Positions 10,268-62,455 of a stretch of DNA of 64,000 nucleotides are shown here, piece after piece. The notes beneath the pieces are model-generated. The model was not told the origin of the DNA and did not search any database. It saw only the letters and a program-made list of their open reading frames with translations. The stretch lies in the IMG/VR virus record IMGVR_UViG_3300024999_000038, positions 64,001-128,000 of that record. One strand, written 5' to 3'. Position 1 is the stretch's first letter. The number at the start of each line of letters is the position of its first letter. Source of the stretch: a virus. The position numbers and the translations under genes were made by a program.

Positions 10268-10846
10268 ATGGAATTCGTCCAACCAATACGCGACAAAACA
10301 AAAATTGAACAAATGAAACAATATCTAAAATCACATTCACTTAGAGATTATACCCTTTTCACATTAGGAATTAATTCCGGCCTAAGAATATCTGATTTGC
10401 TAAAAATGAAAGTATCTGATGTTGTAAGCGAGGATGGTAAAATTAAGGATCGGATTTCTATTCGAGAGAAAAAGACTGGCAAGGCGAAGACGTTTCCTTT
10501 TAGTCAAAATGTAGTCGAAGCATTAAAAGAATATCTTATCACAATTCCAAGTAATCAAATAATGCTATTTGCTTCTAGAAAAATTGAAGGCTCCGAAGGT
10601 AAAGGTTCCATAAGCAGACAAAGAGCATACACCATATTAAATGAAGCAGCTAAAGCTTGCGACATAAAAGGACAAATTGCGACACATTCACTTAGAAAAA
10701 CTTTCGGATTTATGGCTTATGAAGCTGGAGTGGACATAACTCGTATCCAGTCCATTCTCAACCATTCTTCGCCTAAAGAAACGCTCAGATATATTGGTAT
10801 AACTCAAGATGAACTGGATGACGTTTATTTAGAATTAAACCTTTGA
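10268..10846 (+). CDS. Tyrosine recombinase (catalytic-domain-only, 192 aa)
   Basis: Full catalytic set: GLRISD (R), EKKTGK (K), HSLRKT (HxxR), LNHSS (H), RYIG (Y). Confidence 0.93.
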   Translation: MEFVQPIRDKTKIEQMKQYLKSHSLRDYTLFTLGINSGLRISDLLKMKVSDVVSEDGKIKDRISIREKKTGKAKTFPFSQNVVEALKEYLITIPSNQIMLFASRKIEGSEGKGSISRQRAYTILNEAAKACDIKGQIATHSLRKTFGFMAYEAGVDITRIQSILNHSSPKETLRYIGITQDELDDVYLELNL

Positions 10847-23757: not shown

Positions 23758-24477
23758 ATGGAATTAAAATTTATTGGCACAGGTTCAGCGTTTAATACTA
23801 AATTAGGAAATACTTCAGCATATATCAAAGAAAATGGTTGTTTATTACTTCTTGATTGTGGTGAGTTGACTTTTGATAGGATTATAAATATGAATCTATT
23901 AAATGATGTTAATGAAGTACATATTGCTGTAACTCATTGTCATCCAGACCACATAGGGAGTTTAGGGAGTTTAATATTCTATTGTCATTTTATTAAGAAA
24001 ATTAAGCCGATATTTCACGCAGTTGATATTAAATCTATTGAATTATTAGAACTTATGGGAGTTACTTATGATCATTGCTATTTTTATAATTGTATGGTTG
24101 ATAAGTTTGCAGAAATTAAATCTCTTAATCTTCAATTGTTATTCGTTCCTACAAAGCACGTAAATAAAATGAATTCTTTTGGAATATTAATTGCTAATCT
24201 AATCACAAGAAAAACTATTTATTATAGCGGAGATAGTTGTGAGATACCAAAATCTATTTTGTATGGTTTAAAATGCGGAGAACTTCATTATTTGTATCAA
24301 GATACTTGCAAAGTAGATTATGATGGTAATGTTCATTTGTCCTTAAGGAAACTTACAGAACTTATTCCCGAAGAGTTAAGGAGTATGGTTTATTGTATGC
24401 ATTTGGACAGTGTATTTGATAGAAGTGAGGCAGAGGGACTAGGATTTAATGTTGTTGAGATTGAAGGAGGTGAATAA
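23758..24477 (+). CDS. MBL-fold metallo-hydrolase (RNase Z-like)
   Basis: FIGTGSAF, LLLDCG, THCHPDHIG, YYSGDS, MHLD motifs. Confidence 0.9.
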   Translation: MELKFIGTGSAFNTKLGNTSAYIKENGCLLLLDCGELTFDRIINMNLLNDVNEVHIAVTHCHPDHIGSLGSLIFYCHFIKKIKPIFHAVDIKSIELLELMGVTYDHCYFYNCMVDKFAEIKSLNLQLLFVPTKHVNKMNSFGILIANLITRKTIYYSGDSCEIPKSILYGLKCGELHYLYQDTCKVDYDGNVHLSLRKLTELIPEELRSMVYCMHLDSVFDRSEAEGLGFNVVEIEGGE

Positions 24478-26450: not shown

Positions 26451-27401
26451 ATATATACAGCAGTAGATTTTTTCTGTGGTATGGGTGGTGTTTCTAAAGG
26501 ATTAGAGGATGCAGGTTTTAAAGTTTTAAAAGGGTATGATATGTGGGAAAATGCACTTAAAACTCATAAACAAAATCTGCAAAATATTGATGTAGAAAAT
26601 ATTGATATTACAAAATTGGAAATCGAGGATATCCCAGATGCAGATTTATACCATTTTAGTCCACCATGTCAATCTTTTAGTACAAGTGGTAAAAAGGAAG
26701 GAGCTAAAAGTGATAAAGGTCAATTAATATATGAAACAGTTAGGATTTTAAAAGGCAAAAACCCAAAGGCATTCACATTTGAAAATGTAAAAGGATTAAC
26801 CTTAAAAAATAATAGGAGCGATTTCGATAAATTAATAAGTATATATGAAAATATTGGTTATGTATGTTCGTGGAAAGTAATTAATGCTTATGATTATGGA
26901 GTAGTTCAAAGCAGAGAAAGGTTAATTTTGGTTGGTATAAGAAAGGATTTAGATGTAGCTTATGAATTTCCAGATAAAATTCCTAATAATAAAACAATAA
27001 AAGATGTTATAAAAAATATAAAAAACAATAAAGGTGTATTAAAACACAAACCTGAAACAGTAGAAAAAATAAAACATGTTCCATATGGAGGTTCTATTTT
27101 AGATATTCCATCCGAAATAAGACCTAAAGCGTTTGGCAATGCTTATGTTAGATTAAAATGGAATGAAATACCTCCAACTATTACTAGAAATTATAATTGT
27201 CCATGTAGTGCAAATTGTATTCATCCAGAAGAACATAGGGCGTTAAGTGATACAGAAGCATTGCTTATACAAGGGTTTGATGAGGAGTGGGAGGTATTAG
27301 GAACAGGTAAGGATTTACAGATAGGCAACGCATTACCACCACAAATAATGAAGGTTATAGGGAAAAGTCTAATACATATTTTGGATATGAAAAATAAATA
27401 A
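26451..27401 (+). CDS. Orphan C5-cytosine DNA methyltransferase (probable ATA start)
   Basis: Motif I YTAVDFFCGMGG begins upstream of the tracked Met; motifs SPPCQ, ENV, QSRER and IGNA present; no cognate restriction endonuclease adjacent. Confidence 0.92.
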   Translation: MYTAVDFFCGMGGVSKGLEDAGFKVLKGYDMWENALKTHKQNLQNIDVENIDITKLEIEDIPDADLYHFSPPCQSFSTSGKKEGAKSDKGQLIYETVRILKGKNPKAFTFENVKGLTLKNNRSDFDKLISIYENIGYVCSWKVINAYDYGVVQSRERLILVGIRKDLDVAYEFPDKIPNNKTIKDVIKNIKNNKGVLKHKPETVEKIKHVPYGGSILDIPSEIRPKAFGNAYVRLKWNEIPPTITRNYNCPCSANCIHPEEHRALSDTEALLIQGFDEEWEVLGTGKDLQIGNALPPQIMKVIGKSLIHILDMKNK

Positions 27402-37719: not shown

Positions 37720-38601
37720 ATGATCAGACATGTCGGATTCGCCTGTATGAGTAAAAAGTGTAACACTAAATATCAAACATTCCGATTAGCATCATTCAGT
37801 GAATACAGGTCGCGTCAAGCAATTGCTCACAATCTAAAAGAAACTGAGCGTACAATTCAACATTGTATTTCAGAAGGAATTAAATTATTCAGAATAAGTT
37901 CTGATTTAGTTCCATTTGCTACACATGAAATCATGAAAGATATTGATTATATTTCTTGGATTGAATCTGATTTAAAAAGGATTGGTGATATAGCAAGAAA
38001 TAATAATATGCTATTATCTATGCATCCATCTCAAATGTGTTGTATAAACAGTCCAAAACAAGAAGTTGTAAATAATTCTATCAAAGATTTAATGTATCAT
38101 TATGATATTCTTAATACTATGGGCCTTACTGATTTTAATATTATCATTCATGTTGGTGGAGTTTATGGTAATAAATTAGAAGCAAAGAAGAGATTTGTTA
38201 GTGTATTTAATAGTTTGCCTGTTGATTTAAGAAATCATATCTTGCTTGAGAATGATGACAAAAGTTATACTGTTAATGATATAATGGAAATACACAAAGA
38301 AACTGGAGTTAGACTAGTGCTAGATTTTCACCACAATGTTTGTAATAATGATGGGACAGAATTAGATTTAGAAGCTGTATTTGCCACTTGTGGGGTTGGT
38401 AAAGTACCTAAGATACATCTTAGTTCACCTAAGAGTATTAAAGAGTTCAGAAGTCATTCTGACATGATTGATTATGAATATTGTAGAGAGTTCTTTGAGA
38501 AGTATAAGGGATTAGAATTTGATGTTATGATTGAGGCTAAGGATAAGGATTTAGCTGTAGAGAAGTTTATTGAGGATTATAGGAGGGAGATGAGATTATG
38601 A
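37720..38601 (+). CDS. uvsE: UV damage endonuclease (UvsE/UVDE)
   Basis: GFAC, FRISSDLVPFATH, SMHPSQ, IHVGG.YG.K, LENDD, DFHH, KIHLSSP, HSD, DVMIEAKDKD motifs. Confidence 0.95.
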   Translation: MIRHVGFACMSKKCNTKYQTFRLASFSEYRSRQAIAHNLKETERTIQHCISEGIKLFRISSDLVPFATHEIMKDIDYISWIESDLKRIGDIARNNNMLLSMHPSQMCCINSPKQEVVNNSIKDLMYHYDILNTMGLTDFNIIIHVGGVYGNKLEAKKRFVSVFNSLPVDLRNHILLENDDKSYTVNDIMEIHKETGVRLVLDFHHNVCNNDGTELDLEAVFATCGVGKVPKIHLSSPKSIKEFRSHSDMIDYEYCREFFEKYKGLEFDVMIEAKDKDLAVEKFIEDYRREMRL

Positions 38602-39644: not shown

Positions 39645-40160
39645 ATGAAATCAACAGGTATTATTAGGAGAATAGATGACTTAGGAAGGGTAGTAATTCT
39701 TAAAGAAATTAGACGAACTTTAAGGATTCATGAAGGAGATCCAATGGAATTATGTGTGCATGAAGGTGGAGTATTTTTAAAGAAGTATTCTGCATTAGGT
39801 GAAATGATAGATTATGCTCAAAACTTTGCTGATACATTATTTGAACAAACTGGCCATATTGCTTTAATTTGTGATAGCGATGTTGTAATTGCTGTATCTG
39901 GAACGTCAAAAAGAGATTTTTTAAATAAACCAATTTGGAATTTAGCATCTAAAGCAATGGAAGAAAGATTAACATTAACTGGCCTTAAAGATGGAATACA
40001 AGAAGAATTTGAATATGAAAATCAAATTGTTACACCAGTAATTTGTGAAGGTGATGTAGTAGGAGCAATAGGGTTAGTAGCGAAAGAAGAAGTTGGAATT
40101 GTAGAACAAAAACTAGTTCAATCTGTTGCAAGATTTTTAGCGAAACAAATGGGACAATAA
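39645..40160 (+). CDS. spoVT: SpoVT-like regulator (AbrB N-terminal domain + GAF domain)
   Basis: MKSTGIIRRIDDLGRVVI.KEIRRTLRI.EGDP...LKKYS...GDVVGAI...FLAKQM. Confidence 0.9.
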   Translation: MKSTGIIRRIDDLGRVVILKEIRRTLRIHEGDPMELCVHEGGVFLKKYSALGEMIDYAQNFADTLFEQTGHIALICDSDVVIAVSGTSKRDFLNKPIWNLASKAMEERLTLTGLKDGIQEEFEYENQIVTPVICEGDVVGAIGLVAKEEVGIVEQKLVQSVARFLAKQMGQ

Positions 40161-50326: not shown

Positions 50327-50758
50327 ATGCAAGTAGTAAATAAAGTTGCACAACATAATCAACCACAACAATTTAATAGAGGAGACATTTACTTAGCTAC
50401 AGTTGAAAATAATGTCGGAGGGTCAGTGCAAAATATTTGTCAGAGACCAATGATTATAATTTCAAATCCTATGAGTTTACTGCACTCGCCTGTGATTCAC
50501 GCAATTCCATTATCTTCTAAGACTTTTAAGCGATGGATTCCAACTCACGTTTCTGTACCTATGGCTAGTAGTGGTTTATTAAAGGATTCAATTGCACTTT
50601 GCGAACAAGTAATGTTGCTCCCGAAAGAGGTTTTTAGTAAAAAAATTGGCACATGCAGTAGTTTAATTGTAAACAAATTAGAAGAGGGTTTAATGGTACA
50701 ATTCGGGTTGTTTAATCATAGTCAAAATGTAAGAAACAATGTTGCTTATGCAAATTAA
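50327..50758 (+). CDS. PemK/MazF-family endoribonuclease-like protein
   Basis: RGDIYLA...GSVQ...RPMIIISN...SP...IPLSS...PTHV...GLLKDSIALCEQV. Confidence 0.85.
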   Translation: MQVVNKVAQHNQPQQFNRGDIYLATVENNVGGSVQNICQRPMIIISNPMSLLHSPVIHAIPLSSKTFKRWIPTHVSVPMASSGLLKDSIALCEQVMLLPKEVFSKKIGTCSSLIVNKLEEGLMVQFGLFNHSQNVRNNVAYAN

Positions 50759-50780
50759 AGAAGGAGAGATTATTTAAATA

Positions 50781-52379
50781 TTGGGGAAAATGAAAACTAC
50801 AGAACAGTATAGACAAGATTTAGAAGAATACAATTTAAAATATAATACAAAAATAGAGTTAAAGAATGGAGTTGAATATAATGGTGCTAATACTAAAATA
50901 TTACATATTTGTTCGTGTGGTAAAGAGTGGTTAGTTTCACCTTCAGGCGTTATAAATAGTAGTTCGAAAACAAGTTGTGGTTATACGTTTGCAGAAAAAG
51001 GAATCGATAATCTAGGGTATAATTTTTTAGAAAAATATTGGGATTATAAAACAAATAACGAATTAGGAATTGATCCTTGGAAAATTAGTTGTAGTTCTGG
51101 AAAAGAAGTTTATATATTTTGCCAAGAGAAAGATTATCATGGAAGTTATAAAGTACGTTGTGCTGATTTTAGTAATGGAAACAGGTGTGGTTATTGTCAA
51201 GGATACTATTTGGTTCATCCTTTAGATAGTTATGGACAGTATTTAATTGATTCATTTGGAATAACCGCACTAGAACTGTATTGGGATTATAATATAAACA
51301 CTGTTGATCCTTGGAAGATTACAAAACAATCAAATAAGATGGTATATATTAAATGTCAGAGGAAATATTATCATGGAAGTTATGGCATCAGGTGCAATGA
51401 TTTTATAAAAGGAGATAGATGTGGATATTGTGGAGGTAAAAAAGTACATCTATTAGATAGTCTAGGAACGTTACATCCAAAATCACTAGAATTATGGTCA
51501 AATATAAACGAAAAATCCCCATATGAATATATGCCTGGGAGCGATATGGAGGTTTGGTTTAAATGTGACAACAAGAGACATGAAGATTACCAAAAAAGAA
51601 TATATAATGCAGTAAACTGTAATTTTGGATGTCCGACATGTTCACAAGAACAAAAAGAATCTATCATGGCCTCCACACTAAAACAAGTACTAAGATATGA
51701 ATATAGTCACACAAAATGGGAATATGATGCAGGATTTAAAATAGATAATAGTATTAGTAGGTATGATATTTATGTTCCAGAATTGAATAACTTATTAATA
51801 GAATGCCAAAGTGAATATCACGATGATGAAAAACATATTATTAACGATCAACTTAAAAAACAGTTTGCTATTGATAATGGATATGAATATATAGCAATAG
51901 ACAAAAGAGATTTTTCCATAATAGAAATACTAAGGTTCTTTATACCATACATGGATAAAATTCCTGATTATGTACAATTAAATAAAAATACTACAAGAGG
52001 TTGGGATATAGAAAACGCTCAAAAATTGTTAGATAGTGGTCATACATATATAAATATAGCTAATATATTAGAAACATCAGTTACCGCGATACGTGCAAGT
52101 GTAGGAGACAATGGGTTAATCAAACCAAATAATTATACTTTTCAAGGTGAAAATATTGTTTGTCTGTCTATGGATAATAGTTTAATAAAAACATATAATT
52201 CTTGCAGTTCTGCCGCCAAAGATTTAGGAAAAGCAAATGGAACAAGTATTAGTTCATGTCTAACTAAGAAGCCTCGTTCAGACACAGGGAAAATTCGTGA
52301 AACAGCTTTTGGTTTTAAATGGATGTATTTAGTAGATTATGAAAATATGATTAAAGATCAAAATAATAAACCTCCGTAA
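50781..52379 (+). CDS. Putative homing endonuclease: repeated Zn-ribbon domains + PD-(D/E)xK-like domain + NUMOD1-like tail
   Basis: Three W..C...H...CGYC/CPTC repeats; RYDIYVPELNNLLIECQSEYH; YNSCSSAAKDL...ISSC...TAFGFKW. Confidence 0.7.
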   Translation: MGKMKTTEQYRQDLEEYNLKYNTKIELKNGVEYNGANTKILHICSCGKEWLVSPSGVINSSSKTSCGYTFAEKGIDNLGYNFLEKYWDYKTNNELGIDPWKISCSSGKEVYIFCQEKDYHGSYKVRCADFSNGNRCGYCQGYYLVHPLDSYGQYLIDSFGITALELYWDYNINTVDPWKITKQSNKMVYIKCQRKYYHGSYGIRCNDFIKGDRCGYCGGKKVHLLDSLGTLHPKSLELWSNINEKSPYEYMPGSDMEVWFKCDNKRHEDYQKRIYNAVNCNFGCPTCSQEQKESIMASTLKQVLRYEYSHTKWEYDAGFKIDNSISRYDIYVPELNNLLIECQSEYHDDEKHIINDQLKKQFAIDNGYEYIAIDKRDFSIIEILRFFIPYMDKIPDYVQLNKNTTRGWDIENAQKLLDSGHTYINIANILETSVTAIRASVGDNGLIKPNNYTFQGENIVCLSMDNSLIKTYNSCSSAAKDLGKANGTSISSCLTKKPRSDTGKIRETAFGFKWMYLVDYENMIKDQNNKPP

Positions 52380-52430
52380 TCAATACATAAATTCTAATAA
52401 TAAATAATAAAAGGAGAGATAATATAATAA

Positions 52431-53048
52431 ATGGTTGAAACATTAATATTTAGTCTGCTGTGTCTAAAAACAAAATTTGATCTAAAACTAGGCAAACTCC
52501 AAATACATAAAGAATCATACCTAATAAAACCAATGCTAAAAAGATGGAGCATCTATCCTGTAATATTTATGTCAATATTCTATGTCTATCTACAATACAC
52601 AATAATGAATCAGAATTACTATTTTCTTCAATATCAACACATAATAAAGAATGCTATATTAGGTTCATATATGATTCTAGGGCTTGATGTTTTGTTTAGG
52701 CATGAAAAGTATAAAGAGTATATTATAGCCTGTTGTAGTCTCTTGTGTGGCTTTACATTGAATAAGATTGTAATGCATTTCAATAATAATCTCATGCCAA
52801 TCTTCCCATCAATATCTTATTCAACAGGTTACACGCAATATGGTATGATTACGAATGCTTCTAAATTTAGCGATTTTCATGTTCTCGGAGATCATACAAC
52901 AAGATTGATATTTTTGGCCGATGTGTTTGATATAGGTGGTAGCATTTGGTCGGTCGGGGATATTTTAGTTAGATTATTTGCTTTTATAATTGTGTATTAT
53001 GCGGGTAAAGTAGTTAGTAAAATGCATACGAACAAAATATTGAATTAA
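52431..53048 (+). CDS. DUF5317-like integral membrane protein
   Basis: G..LN..V...N...MP...H....T.L.FLAD...SVGD motif set. Confidence 0.65.
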   Translation: MVETLIFSLLCLKTKFDLKLGKLQIHKESYLIKPMLKRWSIYPVIFMSIFYVYLQYTIMNQNYYFLQYQHIIKNAILGSYMILGLDVLFRHEKYKEYIIACCSLLCGFTLNKIVMHFNNNLMPIFPSISYSTGYTQYGMITNASKFSDFHVLGDHTTRLIFLADVFDIGGSIWSVGDILVRLFAFIIVYYAGKVVSKMHTNKILN

Positions 53049-53064
53049 TAAATAAATATAAAGC

Positions 53065-53093
53065 TTGCATTACACTCTTACATATGGTATACT
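53065..53093 (+). promoter_or_regulatory. SigA-type promoter for the membrane protein-agrD unit
   Basis: TTGCAT-17-TATACT with extended TG. Confidence 0.65.
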
Positions 53094-53133
53094 TGTTTTA
53101 GATTAAGAAACGAATAAGAAAGAGGTAATACAT

Positions 53134-53955
53134 ATGCAGAGTGTAACAAATGCTTTGTTGAATACAGTATTTGTAAGTTTACCAGAGGAAACATTTTACG
53201 CAATGATGACATTGATATTTTTGAAAAGATATGATCTATTAGATTTTAGAATGTGGAAAGAAAACATTACAACACTTATGATACCTATAATTCCAGTATC
53301 AATATTAATTAATATATTTAGATATATTATAATTATAGATAAAATACAAATGATGATTATTACAATAGTGATATTTTACATATTGTTATTATATATTGTT
53401 ATAAAATATAAAGTTGAAGATATTGAAAGAATACATATGAAAGTTTTATTAAACTTAGCATATAGCGTAGCAATATGGGTGTTCTTAGAAGAGATAACCT
53501 ATCCATCATTATTGTTTTTGATGAATTACCCACTCGAATTTATATCAAATAATATATTTTGGAATTTTATTTTAAGTGTTCCTTCAAGGATAATTGCTAT
53601 GGTTATAATAATATACAACATAGTTAAAAATAGTAACGAAATAAGCAATATAGAAGTTCTTGACGTCATTACTAATAATAAACTTTATCGAAGAATAATG
53701 CTTTTCTGCACAATGTCATTTATTTTATTATCATTATTCTTAATTAAACTTATTTGGTGTAATAAAATATTTGACAATAAGGTTCCTTTGTTTGAAAAGA
53801 TTATTATTACTGAATCGCTTTTTGTTTTGCCAGTAGTTGTAATATTCCTAATAATTATATTAATCAACAATCTTCTTGTAAAAGAAAAACAAATACAACA
53901 GTCTTATGAAAATCTTGTTATGCAAGACGACATAATGCTTGATGTAGAAGATTGA
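53134..53955 (+). CDS. Polytopic membrane protein resembling an AgrC/VirS sensor domain without kinase (paralog 1)
   Basis: About 7 hydrophobic segments; ends ~25 aa after the last TM with no H-box or HATPase; directly precedes agrD. Confidence 0.55.
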   Translation: MQSVTNALLNTVFVSLPEETFYAMMTLIFLKRYDLLDFRMWKENITTLMIPIIPVSILINIFRYIIIIDKIQMMIITIVIFYILLLYIVIKYKVEDIERIHMKVLLNLAYSVAIWVFLEEITYPSLLFLMNYPLEFISNNIFWNFILSVPSRIIAMVIIIYNIVKNSNEISNIEVLDVITNNKLYRRIMLFCTMSFILLSLFLIKLIWCNKIFDNKVPLFEKIIITESLFVLPVVVIFLIIILINNLLVKEKQIQQSYENLVMQDDIMLDVED

Positions 53956-53977
53956 TATGAAAGGAGGTGAAAAATTA

Positions 53978-54094
53978 ATGAAAAAGTACGCAATTATCGC
54001 TGGAGTGGTTGCTTTGTCAGCCGCAATGTTCTCAAATGTATTTGCTTCTATGTTCTTTTCTCATCAACCAAAAACTCCTAATTGCATGAAATAA
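53978..54094 (+). CDS. agrD: AgrD cyclic autoinducing peptide precursor (38 aa)
   Basis: AAGGAGGTGA RBS; MKKYAIIAGVVALSAAMFSNVFASMFFSHQPKTPNCMK carries the clostridial A-[C/S]-x-F/W-F-x-HQP-x-x-P signature. Not in the ORF track. Confidence 0.9.
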   Translation: MKKYAIIAGVVALSAAMFSNVFASMFFSHQPKTPNCMK

Positions 54095-54106
54095 TTTTAC
54101 CATACA

Positions 54107-54136
54107 TATAGGGAAGGACTTCGGTTCTTCCCTATA
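54107..54136 (+). terminator. Strong stem-loop after agrD
   Basis: TATAGGGAAGGAC-TTCG-GTTCTTCCCTATA (cUUCGg tetraloop); no U-tract, so terminator or mRNA stabiliser. Confidence 0.6.
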
Positions 54137-54176
54137 AATCTAATATAAAATATTTTATAAATTTACTAAAAATCTA

Positions 54177-54204
54177 TTGACATATCTCCCAAATATGGTA
54201 AGAT
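54177..54204 (+). promoter_or_regulatory. SigA-type promoter for the HTH-mazF-agrB unit
   Basis: TTGACA-16-TAAGAT with extended TG. Confidence 0.6.
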
Positions 54205-54271
54205 GTATTTAATGAAGTTGTAAATAAATTATATATACATCATTATAAATTGAAAAGGGAGTTGTGTTATT

Positions 54272-55060
54272 ATGTTTGAAAAATTTATTGGTAAAAAAGA
54301 GAGTACTATTACTGAGGAGAATACAAAAAAGGATTTCAAAAAGTTGGCTACATATGTTACTTTAGCCAAAGGCCCAAGAACTATTAATGGATTCGCAGCA
54401 GACTGCAAAACAAATGCTGACTATCTAGCTGATATTATCCATGTAAAAATCAATTCTTATCCTCAAGTTCAATTTCTGAAAATAATATCTGAAAATTCAC
54501 AAGGCAGAGTTTCATTAGATGATCTTAAATTATCTTGTGGATATTCTTTATATGAACATAATGATATGGAGCAAATAAAAAATATTAATGTTCGCAGAGG
54601 ATGGTTTTGTTACGTAAATCTAGGCCAAGTTTTGGACTCGGAATATGGGGGAAATCGAATGTGTTTGGTAGTGCAAAACGACGTAGGGAATCATTTCTCA
54701 AGCACATCAATTATTTTACCATTGACTTCTAGAAAATCAAAAGTAAAGCTTCCTACTCACGTCGAAGTTGGAATAAAAAATTGCGGATTACCGCAAGATT
54801 CGATTGTTAGTTGTGAGCAAATTCGTTGCGTATCGAAAAGGAGACTTATTCAAAATGGAATAGTCCAGAAAGTATCAGAATGTCCTCCAGATGTAATGTT
54901 AAAGGTAGAGGTGGCTTTATTAAAAGCACAAGGAGTTATACATCTTAAAATGAATGAACAGGAAGCTATTCAGCACTTAATGAACATGAATACCCAAAAA
55001 ACATACCAGTATCAAAATAATTATGCTAGTGCAGGACAGCAGGTGGCCTATGCACGATAA
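54272..55060 (+). CDS. XRE-like HTH fused to a PemK/MazF domain
   Basis: N-term LAKGPRTINGFAADC...P..QFLKII...QGRVSLDDLKLSCGY; C-term VRRG...SEYGGNRMCLVVQNDVGNHFS...LPLTS...LPTHV...DSIVSCEQIRCVSKRRL. Confidence 0.85.
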   Translation: MFEKFIGKKESTITEENTKKDFKKLATYVTLAKGPRTINGFAADCKTNADYLADIIHVKINSYPQVQFLKIISENSQGRVSLDDLKLSCGYSLYEHNDMEQIKNINVRRGWFCYVNLGQVLDSEYGGNRMCLVVQNDVGNHFSSTSIILPLTSRKSKVKLPTHVEVGIKNCGLPQDSIVSCEQIRCVSKRRLIQNGIVQKVSECPPDVMLKVEVALLKAQGVIHLKMNEQEAIQHLMNMNTQKTYQYQNNYASAGQQVAYAR

Positions 55061-55076
55061 AAGAAAGGAAGATTAA

Positions 55077-55784
55077 ATGTTTTCAGTTCAAGATATTTCT
55101 GATCAATTGGCTACTAAACTATCAAAAAAAATATCATTAGATAAATTTAAAGAAGTTTGGGGGATCGTTATAAAAATATTCCCATCACTTGCTGATAAGC
55201 TTAATCTTGAACAAATAAAATCAATAAATGACTTATTAGGTTTATATAGTTATGGGATAACGGTATTTGTAGGATTACTATTCAAAGGCCCATTATTGAT
55301 TATAATATCAATTATCTTTGGAATATTTACACCAATTATGTTTGTGGTAACCACATTTTCAAGTTTTAGGGTTGTAGCAGGTGGTTACCATATGCAGACA
55401 TATTTAAGGTGTTGGATTGTAAGTTTTGTCACATTTATTGGATCTGCACTTATAGTCCAACACACACTTCAATATTGGTCTACCCAAAATATCTCTTCAC
55501 TCTTCATATTTTGTATTTTAATGGGATTATATATAATTTTTAGATATATTCCTCGCGACACACCCAATAAGCCAATTACAGAGCCATTGGAGATAGCAAA
55601 GTTTAAAAAATGGTCGTTATACTACTTAATTTCATGGGTAACAATAATGACCATTTTCTTATTCTTTAATCTAAAATTAATTGTTATTTCAAGTTGTTTT
55701 GGATTATTATTGGAATTATTTTCAATAAGTAAAATTGGTTATAGTCTATATTCCCTTGTAGATGATATTGGTATACATAAATAA
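55077..55784 (+). CDS. agrB: AgrB accessory gene regulator protease/cyclase
   Basis: FRVVAGGYHMQTYLRC (conserved R, GG-x-H and catalytic C) and PRDTPNKPI motif; multi-TM. Confidence 0.92.
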   Translation: MFSVQDISDQLATKLSKKISLDKFKEVWGIVIKIFPSLADKLNLEQIKSINDLLGLYSYGITVFVGLLFKGPLLIIISIIFGIFTPIMFVVTTFSSFRVVAGGYHMQTYLRCWIVSFVTFIGSALIVQHTLQYWSTQNISSLFIFCILMGLYIIFRYIPRDTPNKPITEPLEIAKFKKWSLYYLISWVTIMTIFLFFNLKLIVISSCFGLLLELFSISKIGYSLYSLVDDIGIHK

Positions 55785-55956
55785 TATCTCACAAACCACC
55801 TTACTATCCCACCTTATCCCATAATTGCAATACTTTATTCAATTTATTTTTCCAACATTTATGATATATTTACAGCAACAAGTAATAGCACATAATAACT
55901 GCCCCTTACTCAAACCACACCCACAAACTAAATAAAAAGAAGGAAGGAAACCCTAT

Positions 55957-56820
55957 ATGTCTATTACCAATGCTGTACTAAATCTACTATTTGTCTCCAT
56001 CCCAGAAGAAGCATTTATAGCAATAATAGCTATAACATTCCTAAATAAACTAGATAATCTTTTCGATATCTATATGTGGAAGAACAATCTCAAATGGCTT
56101 ATGATAGCAACATTGCCCACATCAATATTAATTTGTGTTTTACGATTTGTAATGTCTGTTCCCCAAAATATTGTAGTAAAATTAGCCATAATTATAATGA
56201 TTGCTTCAATGATATACATAGTAATTAAAAACTCTGACAAAATTACTATTCTATTAATATTTAAAACAGCAATGTTTACATTAGCAGGATTTGTAATTAC
56301 AGGAATATTGGAATACTCATATTGCCCAATAATATTCTCATTATTACATAAACCACAAGAATTTTTTAATAATGTTTTCCTCTATAATTTTCTATTAGGT
56401 TTACCTGCAAGAGTCCTTTACACCTGTATTATCACTTTTATCATAATGAAGAAAAATGGCAAAGTTAAAGTAAATTTATTTGATACTTTAGTCAAAAGCA
56501 AATTAATCATTGGTATTTTCATTGCTACAATATTATCTGTAGTTTCATTAATTGCCTATGTTGCTAAATTGATAGAAAATGAAAGCATTTTGTTTAGTTT
56601 TCAATTCATTGATCAATTTATTATCATTGTAATAATCACATCTGTACCAACTATTTTAATCACATTGTTATTGATAGTTATTAATTATTTAATATCAGGT
56701 GAGAAGGAAAATCAGCAAATGTACGAGAATGCTATGGGTAGTAGGGATGAGAATGAGGATATAAATGAGGATGGTAATAATAGTAGCGATGAAGATATTT
56801 ATGAAAATTATTATGAATAA
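55957..56820 (+). CDS. Polytopic membrane protein, kinase-less AgrC-like (paralog 2), acidic tail
   Basis: SITNAVLNLLFVSIPEEAF versus SVTNALLNTVFVSLPEETF; NFLLGLPAR versus NFILSVPSR; EKENQQMYEN versus EKQIQQSYEN. Confidence 0.55.
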   Translation: MSITNAVLNLLFVSIPEEAFIAIIAITFLNKLDNLFDIYMWKNNLKWLMIATLPTSILICVLRFVMSVPQNIVVKLAIIIMIASMIYIVIKNSDKITILLIFKTAMFTLAGFVITGILEYSYCPIIFSLLHKPQEFFNNVFLYNFLLGLPARVLYTCIITFIIMKKNGKVKVNLFDTLVKSKLIIGIFIATILSVVSLIAYVAKLIENESILFSFQFIDQFIIIVIITSVPTILITLLLIVINYLISGEKENQQMYENAMGSRDENEDINEDGNNSSDEDIYENYYE

Positions 56821-56991
56821 TTATTATAAATAGGAGGCGATAATAATGCTCTAAAAATAGTTCCAAAGCACTAAGACTATTGACCTATATCAAATGGCAA
56901 TATTCCTATTCTAATAAATAAATAAGATAAAACAATGTCGAAAAACCGAACATAACATCCCAAAATAACATAATTATTGGTAATTTTGTTC

Positions 56992-57020
56992 TTGATTCTT
57001 GAACAAATGTTCTATATAAT
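56992..57020 (+). promoter_or_regulatory. SigA promoter with a LexA (SOS) box in its spacer
   Basis: TTGATT-17-TATAAT with GAAC-AAAT-GTTC at 57001-57012. Confidence 0.7.
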
Positions 57021-57101
57021 AATATCAAGGAGGTATTGAAAGAACAAAGATATAATTTGTTGAATATCCAAATATTAGAAAATAAAGGAGAGATTTTAAA
57101 T

Positions 57102-57509
57102 ATGAATTGTATTAAAACAGAAGACAATGTGAGATATACATGGGCCATCAAAGATTCAAAAGGTAATTTTGCCCATAAGGGCAGTATACGTAAAATCAAT
57201 AAAGATACTTGGCAATACATATCGTTTAAGACATTCTCCCAAGAAGCTAGGGGATACACATCCAAGGAATCTGCTGAAAAAGCATTGGCTTTCTTAAATA
57301 AAAAGAATGACATTGCAGGATTCAAATTTGTTTTTCATATTGAGTGTCTTAACTTAAATAAAATAATTGATGAAAACACCATATTCCAAGGTAAAAATAT
57401 GCTTATATATGAAAAAGAAGTGGTATCAGCTGCTTATAAAATGGGAAAAGTGGCAAAAACATGTGTCTGTACATGTTTACCAACTCTAATATTAGCCAGT
57501 ATAATTTAA
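57102..57509 (+). CDS. Hypothetical protein, probably SOS-inducible
   Basis: ATG 57102 after AAAGGAG (tracked TTG 57036 is an alternative); monocistronic between the SOS promoter and a hairpin. Confidence 0.65.
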   Translation: MNCIKTEDNVRYTWAIKDSKGNFAHKGSIRKINKDTWQYISFKTFSQEARGYTSKESAEKALAFLNKKNDIAGFKFVFHIECLNLNKIIDENTIFQGKNMLIYEKEVVSAAYKMGKVAKTCVCTCLPTLILASII

Positions 57510-57525
57510 TTAATTAACTCCACGC

Positions 57526-57568
57526 ACAATAAACTACTCTGAGATCATGTCACTGAGTAGTTTATTGT
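57526..57568 (+). terminator. Stem-loop terminator
   Basis: ACAATAAACTACTC...GAGTAGTTTATTGT 14-bp stem. Confidence 0.6.
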
Positions 57569-57587
57569 AGAAATAAAGTATTTTTCC

Positions 57588-57617
57588 TTGACATTATTGC
57601 ACAACTCATGTTATTAT
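57588..57617 (+). promoter_or_regulatory. SigA-type promoter of the repressor operon
   Basis: TTGACA-18-TATTAT with extended TG. Confidence 0.55.
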
Positions 57618-57649
57618 ATATACATTAATGATGTGAAGGAGAGATATTT

Positions 57650-59020
57650 ATGCTTAAAGAAAAATCGGTTGCACTCATGAGGGAACTAAATGTGTTAATT
57701 AAGAAGTATAGTTCAAACGACAAGGTAAGAAAATTAATTGTAGAAGAATTTGATAAAAGAAATATGAAGGGCAGTTTAGCGGTCGGCATCTTAAATGAAA
57801 ATAGAGAGCTATCCACATTAGATATTGATGAAAGCAAAGATGTAATAATGTTATTTATTTTCACTATGAGTATGTATAATGCATTGACATATAAAGAGGA
57901 AGAAGATAAAGAGGCGTTGGGAGAAATTGAAGAAGGGTTAAGAATTGATCCTAAAAATTATTTTACTGAAATTGAAATTGAAAACCTAAATGACTATAAG
58001 TTTGAAAAGAAAATAGACAAAAAAGACGAAGTTATTATTTTCCCCAAAATGAGTAGAATTGCCCCTGATTTCTTTTCAGGCTATATGTCAGGAAAGCATT
58101 TTGCAGAATTAGATGCAGGAAATGAATTTATCTATAATTTTAAGACTCAGCGTGACCCAATTATTGATGTATCTGGAATGAAGAGGATACATTTAAATAA
58201 AACAAATGCAAAAGAAATTAGAGATGGCCTAATCTCAAAGAATCAATTCCCAACTACCATAGTAGTAAATGTTCTTAAAGACGGTGAAGACGAGATATAT
58301 TATGATGAGAAAACAGGCGATTTGTCTATTATTTCAGGTACTAAAAACCTTGTTGATGGAATGCATAGAAAAGTTGGTAATAGTTTGGCTCTCGCTATTG
58401 ATCCAGACTTGGAGTTTAATTGGTTATTAGTTGTAACAAACTATAGTGAAATTAGAGCACAAAAATATATGGTGGAAATTAACAAGCAACAAAAAATGAA
58501 ACAAGAACATATTAAAAATATGGATACTGCCAGTCTTGGAAATATTGTTGTTGATGTTATTAAAGATATCAATAGTTCTGAATTTGCTGGACATATCAAA
58601 GATAGCGACAAGGAATTAGAACATGGAGGTTTAACTAGGAAGTCAATTTTAACTTTAGCAATTGAGGAAATATACAAAGATAAACTTGAAAACAAAACAT
58701 TCATAAAACCTATCGCCAACCACATTACAAACGTTATGGATCATATTATTGCATTGAGAGTTGATGAGTTTATGAAATATCCTGAAGCCACACGTAAAGT
58801 AAGCTATATCAACCACAAGAATATGTTTGCAGGATATGTAGCTTTATCTGAGAGACTATATGGAGTTGAAAAATGGGATGACCTCCTTGAGGAAATTTTA
58901 GATAAAATTGATTTCAGTATGAAAAATTCTTTTTGGGAAGATATTGGATTGGGCAAAGAGTCCGATATGAAGAAAACTACACGAAACAATCTATACGAAT
59001 TCTTTCAAAAATTAATTTAA
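57650..59020 (+). CDS. DndB/DGQHR (ParB-like) domain protein, SPbeta YopQ/SroE-like
   Basis: YNFKTQR...FPTTIVVN...LVDGMHR...EINKQ; 456 aa; directly upstream of a recombinase-fold protein. Confidence 0.7.
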   Translation: MLKEKSVALMRELNVLIKKYSSNDKVRKLIVEEFDKRNMKGSLAVGILNENRELSTLDIDESKDVIMLFIFTMSMYNALTYKEEEDKEALGEIEEGLRIDPKNYFTEIEIENLNDYKFEKKIDKKDEVIIFPKMSRIAPDFFSGYMSGKHFAELDAGNEFIYNFKTQRDPIIDVSGMKRIHLNKTNAKEIRDGLISKNQFPTTIVVNVLKDGEDEIYYDEKTGDLSIISGTKNLVDGMHRKVGNSLALAIDPDLEFNWLLVVTNYSEIRAQKYMVEINKQQKMKQEHIKNMDTASLGNIVVDVIKDINSSEFAGHIKDSDKELEHGGLTRKSILTLAIEEIYKDKLENKTFIKPIANHITNVMDHIIALRVDEFMKYPEATRKVSYINHKNMFAGYVALSERLYGVEKWDDLLEEILDKIDFSMKNSFWEDIGLGKESDMKKTTRNNLYEFFQKLI

Positions 59021-59036
59021 CAAAGGAGACTTTAAA

Positions 59037-60080
59037 ATGACTAAAAATGAAATCATTGATGAAACTAAAATCCAAGAAGTCGAAGAAAAATTAATGTTTG
59101 AAGTTGATCCTGAAGTTAAGGAAGAATTTTTAGAAAAGCAATTAAAATCAACTAGAAGTTATTATCGGTATATTTTAAAACTTGCCGATGAATTTGAAGT
59201 TAAATTAGGAAAACCAATTTACAATTTCAATACTGAAGAAAGAGATGAGTTATTGACTGTTCAATATAAAAACAAAAATATATTTGCATTTCAAACTGTT
59301 TTGTCTCCATTAAAAACTTATGTTGATTTTTGTATATCTCCTAAGAATTTAGTACGACACAATGAAAATCGCTTTAGTAGTATCCTTACTTCAAACTACA
59401 AAGTTTATATCAGTAAACAAGCAAAAGAAAATTCTTATATCCCTTTATCTGAATGTAGAGAATTTCAATCTAAATTAGCGAATTATCAAGACATGTTAAT
59501 TCTTGAATTGCCAAATCTAGGAGTTAGAGGTCGTACTGAAAAAGGAAATACTCTTGAGGAACTGGTTAATCTAAGGGAAAAAGATATTGAATGGGAGAAA
59601 AAGAGATTACATCTTACCAAAAACAATGGTGAAGAAAGATGGATTGAAGTTGATGATTACACTTTAGATTTACTCAAGAAAACCATCAATCAAGATTTTT
59701 ATATATCCAATAATGGATTAAAGACAAAACCGAACGACGATGGGGTATATGAACGTACAGAAAGGGGAAGAATGATTAATAAAACTGAATATGTATTTAG
59801 AATTCCAGGTAAGAATAAACATGGTAAGGTTGAATACCAATTTTTTGCTAGTAGAATCCAACGTATTCAAAAATGGTTAGGTAAACCGTATATTAGCATT
59901 AGTAATCTGTATTTTTCTGCTATTATAGAATACTCAAAGAAACTAAAAGAAGAGAAAGGTGAATTGATTAGAGAAGATTATATTTCAATCAATCAAAGAT
60001 TTGAATTTGGAGAAGATGGTGAGAAATATGTCTTTAAAACTAGAGAGCTTGTTGAATCATATCTTGACGATGAGAGGTAA
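59037..60080 (+). CDS. Tyrosine-recombinase-fold protein lacking catalytic HxxR; putative lysogeny master repressor (YopR/MrpR/SroF-like)
   Basis: SAM-like N-domain (FEVKLGKPIYNF...LKTYVDFC); G..G...EELVNLREKDI; ISNLYFSAII in place of HxxR. Confidence 0.65.
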   Translation: MTKNEIIDETKIQEVEEKLMFEVDPEVKEEFLEKQLKSTRSYYRYILKLADEFEVKLGKPIYNFNTEERDELLTVQYKNKNIFAFQTVLSPLKTYVDFCISPKNLVRHNENRFSSILTSNYKVYISKQAKENSYIPLSECREFQSKLANYQDMLILELPNLGVRGRTEKGNTLEELVNLREKDIEWEKKRLHLTKNNGEERWIEVDDYTLDLLKKTINQDFYISNNGLKTKPNDDGVYERTERGRMINKTEYVFRIPGKNKHGKVEYQFFASRIQRIQKWLGKPYISISNLYFSAIIEYSKKLKEEKGELIREDYISINQRFEFGEDGEKYVFKTRELVESYLDDER

Positions 60081-60085
60081 ATACT

Positions 60086-60490
60086 ATGCAGAACACACTA
60101 TCTGAGATGTGGAGAAAATACAATTTGCTTTTCTCTTTTAAAAATGAGATGAATAAACGAGGGTACGCTAGTAGGGATTTGTATAGTATCCATGTTCAAT
60201 TATGTTTGTTAATGGAATTGATTGAAATCGAAAGTATTGATATCCTAGATGATTTGTTAAAGAAAAAAACTTATTTCAGACTGTTGAGGAAAATCAATAG
60301 AGGTATTGAATATTTACATGAAATTGTAGATTTACCTGAGAATTGGTCACTTAACACTATTGAGAAAGATACGGACGCATGGATTGATCCAAATGTTCTA
60401 ATATTTACTACGAAATCAAAAGTTGCAGTATTCAGTAAATTGTCCCGTAAGAATGATGGAAGTTTGTATATTGATGGAAAATTTCAATAA
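60086..60490 (+). CDS. Hypothetical protein
   Basis: ORF with RBS inside the repressor operon. Confidence 0.55.
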   Translation: MQNTLSEMWRKYNLLFSFKNEMNKRGYASRDLYSIHVQLCLLMELIEIESIDILDDLLKKKTYFRLLRKINRGIEYLHEIVDLPENWSLNTIEKDTDAWIDPNVLIFTTKSKVAVFSKLSRKNDGSLYIDGKFQ

Positions 60491-60504
60491 GAGGTGTATT
60501 TTTT

Positions 60505-60912
60505 ATGAACGTAGGAGAAAAAATTTGCCTATACAAAGAAAGATTAAACTTTAGAGACTATCAAGAATTTGGTAGAGCAGTTGGTATCAGTGGCAATTGG
60601 ATAAATGAAACATCTAAGAAATCAGAGATTAAACAAATCAACGATTTAGGTTATTTGGTTAAATTATGTGGATTTTTAGGAATAACGATAGATGAATTTT
60701 TAAGAGATGATATAATTGAAACAGATGAATCAATTGAACTTAAAATTATTGATGCAAATTCGGAAGATATTGGTATTTTGCTCAATAATATGATATTATT
60801 ACTAGGAAAGGATGGTATAAAAATAGACGGAGCGTTAATGAATGACAAGAGCAAAGAGATTTGTATAGATAGCCTTGCGGTGGTAAGAACACTAGTCAAG
60901 CAACATTTATAA
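60505..60912 (+). CDS. XRE-family HTH regulator
   Basis: MNVGEKI...QEFGRAVGISGNWINE...LVKLCGFLGITIDEFL. Confidence 0.75.
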   Translation: MNVGEKICLYKERLNFRDYQEFGRAVGISGNWINETSKKSEIKQINDLGYLVKLCGFLGITIDEFLRDDIIETDESIELKIIDANSEDIGILLNNMILLLGKDGIKIDGALMNDKSKEICIDSLAVVRTLVKQHL

Positions 60913-61882: not shown

Positions 61883-62455
61883 ATGAGGAAAAATCCACTA
61901 AAGCATACTAAATTATTTGTCACATTTATTAGTGTGTTTATTCTCATAAGTAGTACAAATGGAAATCATGTTATAAATAAAGATATAAAGAGTGTTAAAC
62001 ATATTAATAATTATGTAAGGAGTGATGTCTGTGAGACACTAAAGCAAATGAGAAAGCAATACATTGTGAAAGTAAAGCCAAAAGAAAAAGTAGTTACTAA
62101 GAAAGAAAATATATTTCTAGTCACAGTTTATGATCTTTCATTCCAGTCATGCCAGAAGTCAAGAGGCAATTCTGAATATGGCATTACTGCTTCGGGATAT
62201 GACTTGAGAGGCCACACATTATCGTCTGCTAGGATAATTTCTGTAGACCCTACTATTATATCGCTTGGAAGTAAAGTGAGGATTACATTCAAAGAAGATA
62301 AGTATAAGAAGTACAATGGAATCTATACGGCAAGCGATATTGGAGGTGGAATTAAAAATAATAAGATTGATTTGTTTGTTGGAGATAATATTTGGTCTAG
62401 AAAAAATATTAGAGATTTTGGAGTCAGGGAATGTGTTGTAGAAATAATCGAGTAA
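61883..62455 (+). CDS. Secreted 3D-domain (lytic transglycosylase-like) protein
   Basis: Signal-like N-term; GITASG...ISVDP..I.LGSKV...ASDIGGGIKNNKIDLF. Confidence 0.85.
   Translation: MRKNPLKHTKLFVTFISVFILISSTNGNHVINKDIKSVKHINNYVRSDVCETLKQMRKQYIVKVKPKEKVVTKKENIFLVTVYDLSFQSCQKSRGNSEYGITASGYDLRGHTLSSARIISVDPTIISLGSKVRITFKEDKYKKYNGIYTASDIGGGIKNNKIDLFVGDNIWSRKNIRDFGVRECVVEIIE

Follow-up and report, generated by a model that had tools for sequence, protein, structure and literature searches.

To our knowledge, arbitrium is the only phage-made signal that has been shown to make the choice between lysis and lysogeny. In SPbeta, the genes of the respective region follow in the order aimR, aimP, yopM-yopP, yopQ, yopR, and Sar proteins, which are under LexA control and poorly conserved, inactivate the SroF repressors of SPbeta-type phages; in phage phi3T, lysogeny is favoured by host MazF in its free state (PMC10769878). 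Among peptides of the agr type, the one from Clostridium thermocellum is cut at an Ala-Ser junction and closed into a lactone of five residues (PMC5322536). Here we describe a cassette of agr-type genes that occupies, relative to a yopQ-yopR-like repressor pair, the slot of aimR-aimP in SPbeta. The cassette lies in a 64,000-nucleotide stretch of viral DNA (hereafter, the window) that corresponds to bases 64001-128000 of the linear 150,268-bp IMG/VR virus record IMGVR_UViG_3300024999_000038 (28.5% G+C) and includes genes for a kinase-less membrane sensor (Mem1), an AgrD propeptide, a fusion of a helix-turn-helix (HTH) domain with a MazF-like RNase (HTH-MazF), and AgrB. On balance, we lean slightly towards an account in which an agr-derived density signal feeds an SPbeta-type switch without a phosphorelay.

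The record originates from groundwater metagenomes and is estimated to be 71% complete (the DNA runs belong to a single groundwater study, and the sample of origin is probably among them); complete relatives of the phage have genomes of 167-230 kb. The nearest chromosomal homologs of the Mem protein belong to Clostridia, one of them named from Ruminiclostridium cellobioparum; the phage is large and SPbeta-like and probably infects anaerobic Clostridia. All genes from mazF1 through an XRE-like gene are on the plus strand, in the order given in a preliminary description made from the sequence alone, and the gene content listed there was borne out: agrB, agrD, two MazF domains, DUF5317, Mem1 and Mem2, an SOS-box gene, and SroE- and SroF-like genes are all present. 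The profile searches suggested in that description matched AgrB (Pfam), AgrD (NCBIfam) and PemK (Pfam, two proteins).

The repressor pair consists of a SroE/YopQ-like co-repressor of the DndB/ParB-like type (57650-59020; DndB, E-value 5e-7; tblastn with SPbeta yopQ, E 1e-13, 81% covered) and a SroF/MrpR/YopR-like master repressor with a recombinase fold (59037-60080; MrpR_N_CB, E 4e-13; PDB 9rd5, E 8e-12, and 8a0a, E 1e-5). The whole stretch upstream of this pair is taken up by the agr cassette and one SOS-box gene, and no equivalents of yopM-yopP (sroA-D) were recognised between the cassette and sroE. With cassette genes and repressor genes as queries, about 22 distinct related phages were retrieved. 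In every cassette, Mem1, agrD and HTH-MazF are consecutive; agrB is present in every complete cassette, either after HTH-MazF or upstream of DUF5317; and sroE-sroF follows downstream on the same strand wherever the contig reaches, so that the co-occurrence of these genes next to yopQ/yopR homologs, for which the preliminary description proposed a synteny search, does hold in relatives. As a control for query bias, loci were fetched with two divergent SroE-like proteins, and 17 of the 18 contained the core. The pairwise distances of Mem1, AgrD, HTH-MazF and AgrB correlate with one another (Mantel rho 0.69-0.86), as do those of SroE and SroF (0.86), whereas the two blocks are uncorrelated (rho -0.06 to 0.15); thus, the cassette and the repressor module have been swapped independently, their adjacency being kept nonetheless. 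Not all of the parts initially grouped together belong to the core, which comprises Mem1-agrD-HTH-MazF and agrB; MazF1, DUF5317 and Mem2 fall outside it, the first two being retained without agr genes in one relative (locus L129, 2278-6881) that keeps MazF1, DUF5317, the SOS-box gene and sroE-sroF and has lost Mem, agrD, HTH-MazF and agrB. This locus would be a natural signal-blind variant. Neither Mem1 nor AgrB matched any GenBank phage, and literature searches, with most subscription journals out of reach, yielded no description of the cassette.

Two regulatory elements within the cassette are conserved as well. A 13-bp hairpin after agrD (54107-54136; -19.4 kcal/mol, z -5.2), a probable terminator or transcript stabiliser, is found at the same place in 13 of 13 aligned loci, and the TTGACA of a sigma-A-type promoter before HTH-MazF (54177-54204; TTGACA, 16 nt, TG-TAAGAT) is kept in most relatives; HTH-MazF and agrB therefore probably have a transcript of their own. 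The number of promoters predicted across the region is at chance level and only conserved sites were used.

The propeptide gene agrD (53978-54094) encodes 38 amino acids and scores 22.4 bits against NCBIfam TIGR04223 (cut-off 19); its most likely start, like that of the SOS-box gene (57102), replaces the one assigned at first. The predicted ring is a five-residue Ser lactone, SMFFS, followed by HQPxxP, and by analogy with the C. thermocellum peptide the product is predicted to be cyclo-SMFFS. AgrB (55077-55784; Pfam AgrB PF04647, E 5e-35) is, by family assignment, the peptide cyclase and exporter. The ring is hypervariable: the 21 loci have 21 different rings, and among eight close relatives, identity is 34% at ring positions 2-5, 70% in the leader and 81% in the tail. 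Ring distance tracks Mem1 distance (partial r 0.46, p 0.001, with the effects of HTH-MazF, AgrB and the remainder of AgrD removed) and tracks neither HTH-MazF (-0.12) nor AgrB (0.10). A natural swap illustrates the pairing: in loci L088 and L001, AgrD is about 92-95% identical to that of the window and HTH-MazF is 81-82% identical, whereas Mem1 is 90% identical in L088, with the ring SMFFT, and about 41% identical in L001, with the ring SWLFS. Given that linkage and shared ancestry inflate the ring-Mem1 statistics, we take them as support rather than proof; on comparative evidence, the assignment of Mem1 as the receptor of the phage's own peptide is nevertheless well supported.

Mem1 (53134-53955), the predicted receptor by homology, structural model and co-variation with the ring, is a protein of 273 amino acids. 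In the AlphaFold2 model (predicted local distance difference test score, pLDDT, 82), it consists of seven long helices, the last of which continues into a polar tail; the protein ends about 25 residues past the last membrane helix and hence is unable to phosphorylate anything. Fold searches with this model were uninformative (best Foldseek E 3; best VIA Z 7.8, to generic helical bundles). A Mem profile run against 1.84 billion representatives detected 235 relatives; the 150 that score best are all shorter than 330 amino acids. That Mem is the sensor domain of agr kinases, occurring with and without the kinase, is indicated by three sets of sequence matches. Several Clostridia (L038-L045) possess a split AgrC, with a 160-amino-acid membrane protein, a two-helix SpoOB/GHKL kinase, agrB and agrD, and residues 11-169 of Mem align to the membrane half (probability, P, 92). 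The N-termini of two GHKL kinases of 452-455 amino acids encoded beside LytTR regulators match the Mem profile weakly (E 1e-6 to 1e-5). Finally, a 463-amino-acid HisKA_3/HATPase kinase encoded between agrD and a LuxR-type regulator is matched by a wide Mem profile with E 1e-41 and, in residues 3-239, by a profile of phage Mem proteins only (226 columns, P 96.5, E 8e-10). The comparison covers clostridial agr-linked kinases and the split AgrC. Word-based searches for longer, fused forms of Mem came back blank; these are false negatives because the genome search found Mem-kinase fusions.

Kinase-less Mem proteins are also encoded in bacterial chromosomes, with matches in 40 of the 87 genomes of one order of Clostridia; in 29 of the 41 chromosomal loci, an AgrD-like open reading frame (ORF) lies directly downstream of Mem. 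Such Mem-agrD pairs (L018, L023, L030, L034-L036, L046-L050, L089, L092-L115, L119) are often present in multiple copies (in tandem in L096 and L119) and are sometimes accompanied by agrB and an XRE gene. The chromosomal pair apparently is a signalling unit not yet described, and its Mem protein is a candidate receptor for orphan AgrD peptides. One chromosomal locus (L118, 1567-6443) combines a kinase-less Mem and agrD with two adjoining Mem-HisKA_3 kinases, the second of them lying in two frames, and with a LuxR-type regulator next to these. The possibility that the tail of chromosomal Mem is a His-less SpoOB/DHp helix was considered and dropped, the similarity not being significant. In the phylogenetic tree, the Mem proteins of phages group together, separately from those of chromosomes (support 94/98, not starred; the branches are long). 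The idea of a kinase-less receptor put forward in the preliminary description thus gains from the homology to agr-kinase sensors and from the co-variation with the ring, except that such a receptor is no invention of the phage: it was taken from chromosomes of Clostridia.

The lack of a histidine kinase, an AgrA/LytTR regulator and an AimR-like protein, first noted in the window, was borne out by the domain and AimR searches. No HATPase_c, HATPase_c_5, LytTR or Response_reg domain was detected in the 150-kb record; because the record is incomplete, the kinase and LytTR searches were repeated on relatives. Three complete relatives contain no HATPase (kinase) or LytTR domain, that is, no AgrC/AgrA pair was found elsewhere in complete relatives, and a GHKL-kinase profile had no match in nine records, six of them at least 90% complete. 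A query with SPbeta YopK/AimR produced no match in the record and four complete relatives (a single-sequence query, with no positive control genome), and no ORF in the cassette resembles an AimR-type TPR/RRNPP receptor.

The predicted effector, HTH-MazF (54272-55060), is encoded in every complete cassette and combines an XRE-type HTH at residues 20-100, approximately, a MazF domain (residues 109-217; PemK, E 3e-22) and a helical tail. It matches MazF of Bacillus subtilis with E 1e-21 and keeps R129, T152, H163 and E182, which we take to be the equivalents of R25, T48, H59 and E78 of B. subtilis MazF, with their catalytic roles. The N-terminal domain has no Pfam match; the phage HTH is matched by XRE proteins whose genes neighbour Mem in chromosomes (P 96.6-96.8), some chromosomal Mem-agrD loci adjoin an XRE regulator related to it, and other chromosomal Mem loci also have XRE neighbours. 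Because XRE genes neighbour chromosomal Mem and HTH-MazF follows Mem2 in L088, these comparisons suggest an ancestral receptor-peptide-XRE unit whose XRE protein was fused to MazF in the phage. The second MazF protein, MazF1 (50327-50758; Pfam PemK, E 6e-15; PDB MazF, E 4e-13), is an accessory, stand-alone MazF/PemK-like RNase that keeps Arg40 (corresponding to R25 of B. subtilis MazF) and has Ser at the T48 position; it was not seen in L014, L015 and L081. No cognate mazE adjoins either mazF: the PF04014 profile matches only a gene 10 kb away and nothing in the complete relatives, the search being confined to this profile and not extended to ribbon-helix-helix-type MazE elsewhere. The original statement that the window lacks MazE therefore needs a qualification in that there is an AbrB-fold match at 39645-40160, which stems from a SpoVT-like sporulation regulator (AbrB fold and SpoVT_C, E 9e-33) and not from an antitoxin. 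A short C-terminal motif, VAYA and one further residue, is shared by both MazF proteins and most of their homologs; it might be a tag for degradation or a motif for interaction.

The paralog Mem2 (55957-56820; 287 amino acids; 32% identical to Mem1, E 8e-28) is encoded in 10 of the 21 loci. Within the phage Mem group, Mem2 forms one clade (support 100/99) that extends across phages with unrelated rings. Its assignment as a co-receptor of the phage's own peptide did not hold up, as Mem2 does not track the ring (rho 0.16, p 0.11); it is probably an optional sensor that listens to peptides of other phages or of the host. In L088 (4858-6552), Mem2 is followed by a promoter-like stretch of its own and another HTH-MazF that shares 54% identity with the first type.

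Downstream of Mem2, a perfect LexA/SOS box (GAAC-N4-GTTC; 57001-57012) lies between -35 and -10 in the promoter of the next gene and is the only perfect one in the 150-kb record. The SOS-box gene (57102-57509) belongs to a conserved family that sits before sroE or after sroF and is boxed in either place in most relatives, with perfect or one-off LexA boxes before its homologs in at least 10 of them. The protein shows no sequence match to solved structures (PDB), and Sar proteins are known to be divergent; from its context, namely the LexA box and the proximity to SroF, which resemble those of Sar genes, it is a candidate Sar-like antirepressor. A strong hairpin (57526-57568; z -4.3) between this gene and the sroE promoter (57588-57617) likely separates two transcripts.

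Taken together, these observations can be accommodated in the following scheme. AgrB would turn the AgrD core into a Ser lactone of five residues and export it, as expected from family knowledge and sequence, and the peptide would bind Mem1, to which homology and co-variation point; the two steps jointly appear likely on sequence grounds. Binding may then alter the cytoplasmic face of Mem1 such that HTH-MazF is released or activated, standing in for AgrA, a direct coupling that we put forward tentatively and consider somewhat doubtful. At high peptide levels, HTH-MazF would cut RNA and/or bind DNA, and repression by SroE/SroF would win, resulting in lysogeny and damped induction, with the LexA-controlled neighbour gene providing the DNA-damage input; the direction is adopted from phi3T because free MazF favours lysogeny there. 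Control of lysis and lysogeny as the output seems reasonably probable. The fuller proposition, a second, independently evolved phage communication system in which a kinase-less membrane receptor senses a cyclic peptide on the outside of the cell and directly controls HTH-MazF while a spare receptor eavesdrops, falls just short of being favoured. If true, the same repressor pair has been wired to a different peptide chemistry, so that phage communication evolved more than once, with MazF recruited twice (the host copy in Bacillus and a phage copy here), and a phosphorylation-free mode of agr signalling is widespread in Clostridia; the Mem family then offers a testable answer to how clostridial AgrD peptides without adjoining AgrC/AgrA are sensed.

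Several observations weigh against this scheme. The ring-Mem1 signal is due in part to adjacency and co-inheritance, and as the loci are related, the Mantel p-values err on the optimistic side. The record is only 71% complete, and a kinase of the host could serve. HTH-MazF can be 91% identical between phages in which Mem1 is 43% identical, a contrast that does not suggest a tightly co-evolving interface of the two proteins, and in some HTH-MazFs, His replaces the catalytic Arg; toxicity would be expected of a constitutively active MazF that has no antitoxin, and an inhibitor was not identified. The cassette is dispensable, as indicated by the presence of sroE-sroF without the agr core in L129. 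Moreover, no integration system was identified in the record, the only tyrosine recombinase with a catalytic domain being a 192-amino-acid protein that consists of this domain only (window 10268-10846); similar short recombinases are present in most relatives.

Among the alternatives, the phage might make and sense, or soak up, an agr peptide to steer its host (sporulation, growth arrest), whether or not a kinase of the host takes part, as has likewise been proposed for phiCDHM1, in which case the adjacency to sroE-sroF would merely reflect a block of lysogen-expressed genes. Indeed, clostridial agr peptides control sporulation (PMC8251862) or slow growth (PMC5322536), the phage carries the SpoVT-like regulator, and the hosts own Mem-agrD pairs in nearly half of the genomes of the order mentioned above. 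Host manipulation nevertheless appears unlikely: rings that differ in each of the 21 phages and go with each phage's own Mem1 are more in keeping with private channels than with imitation of a signal from the host, and mimicry needs neither an invariant HTH-MazF gene nor a fixed position.

Fixed position also argues against a function in prophage defence or competition, where the peptide would signal kin or the density of lysogens and the MazF proteins would act as effectors of abortive infection or superinfection exclusion. Defence genes usually move among accessory slots, whereas the linkage of the cassette to sroE-sroF is strict in two divergent repressor clades; we consider this function quite improbable, even though B. 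subtilis MazF acts against phages as an RNase (PMC10769878), Mem2 has spread as one clade over phages with unrelated peptides, and many related phages come from the same groundwater samples (one study). Lastly, the cassette could be decayed host cargo, a captured agr locus from which the kinase was truncated away and signalling lost. The phage Mem proteins, of about 270 amino acids, are shorter than their chromosomal relatives (290-325), and L129 has lost the core; however, the reading frames are intact over 26-90% identity, the promoter and hairpin are conserved, the rings have diversified and kinase-less Mem-agrD pairs are the normal form in chromosomes as well, which makes decay a very improbable explanation. 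We retain signalling into the SPbeta-type switch as the preferred reading.

The remaining genes of the region are more variable. Along with MazF1, the DUF5317 gene and an endonuclease-like gene come and go among the related phages. The latter (50781-52379; three DUF4379 zinc fingers and NUMOD1) is a homing-endonuclease-like passenger that is replaced or absent in many relatives. The accessory DUF5317 membrane protein (52431-53048; Pfam, E 5e-17), with relatives in virus-rich clusters, is absent in L009 and L014; no fold match was found for its predicted model (pLDDT 70), and fold comparison lent no support to its being a signal-peptidase-II-like leader protease. Two small genes after sroF (60086-60912; 134 and 135 amino acids) occupy this position in one repressor clade only; the second, at 60505-60912, initially called XRE, has a weak PHROG match (E 0.002) and no Pfam match. 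Further along, a secreted 3D-domain (lytic transglycosylase-like) gene (window 61883-62455) comes after the repressor module in almost every relative. Elsewhere, the window encodes a metallo-beta-lactamase-fold protein (23758-24477) with a match to the anti-Pycsar protein Apyc1 (49.9 bits; cut-off 50), a C5 cytosine methyltransferase (26481-27401) and a UvdE UV endonuclease (37720-38601).

We class the cassette as a variant form of agr signalling that belongs neither to arbitrium nor to canonical agr; it is arbitrium-like in layout and, by analogy, probably likewise in purpose. With arbitrium of SPbeta and phi3T (PMC8612738, PMC10769878, bioRxiv 10.1101/2025.11.27.690993), it shares adjoining peptide and receptor genes upstream of repressors similar to SroE/YopQ and SroF/MrpR, peptide-receptor pairs that vary, a circuit that includes MazF, and an SOS-box gene beside the repressors. 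It differs in having no AimR or AimX match and no recognised sroA-D equivalents, in the signal, which is an AgrD/AgrB-type cyclic peptide (TIGR04223, above cut-off) as opposed to the linear, re-imported hexapeptide AimP with its secretion signal, in the receptor, which is a membrane protein, and in MazF, which is phage-encoded, with one copy fused to an HTH, whereas host MazF is employed in Bacillus. Compared with agrBDCA, including clostridial agrBD, the cassette has AgrB, AgrD with the QPxxP follower, a hypervariable ring and a seven-helix sensor homologous to kinase sensors, yet neither a DHp/HATPase domain nor AgrA, the candidate output being HTH-MazF. The MazF fold with Arg/Thr in HTH-MazF and Arg/Ser in MazF1 recalls type II MazEF, which the cassette departs from in the lack of an adjacent mazE. 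The agr3 locus of the C. difficile phage phiCDHM1 (PMC3901668) likewise combines phage-borne agrB, agrD and a receptor with no response regulator; its AgrC, however, which is encoded in a 54-kb myovirus, has 453 amino acids and a HATPase domain, and the locus was not reported to be linked to MazF or a repressor module. The orphan AgrD of C. thermocellum, Clo1313_2818 (PMC5322536), is chromosomal, unlike the phage gene, and resembles it in the Ser-cyclised five-residue ring with no tail (as identified by liquid chromatography-mass spectrometry), with no agrB, agrC or agrA alongside.

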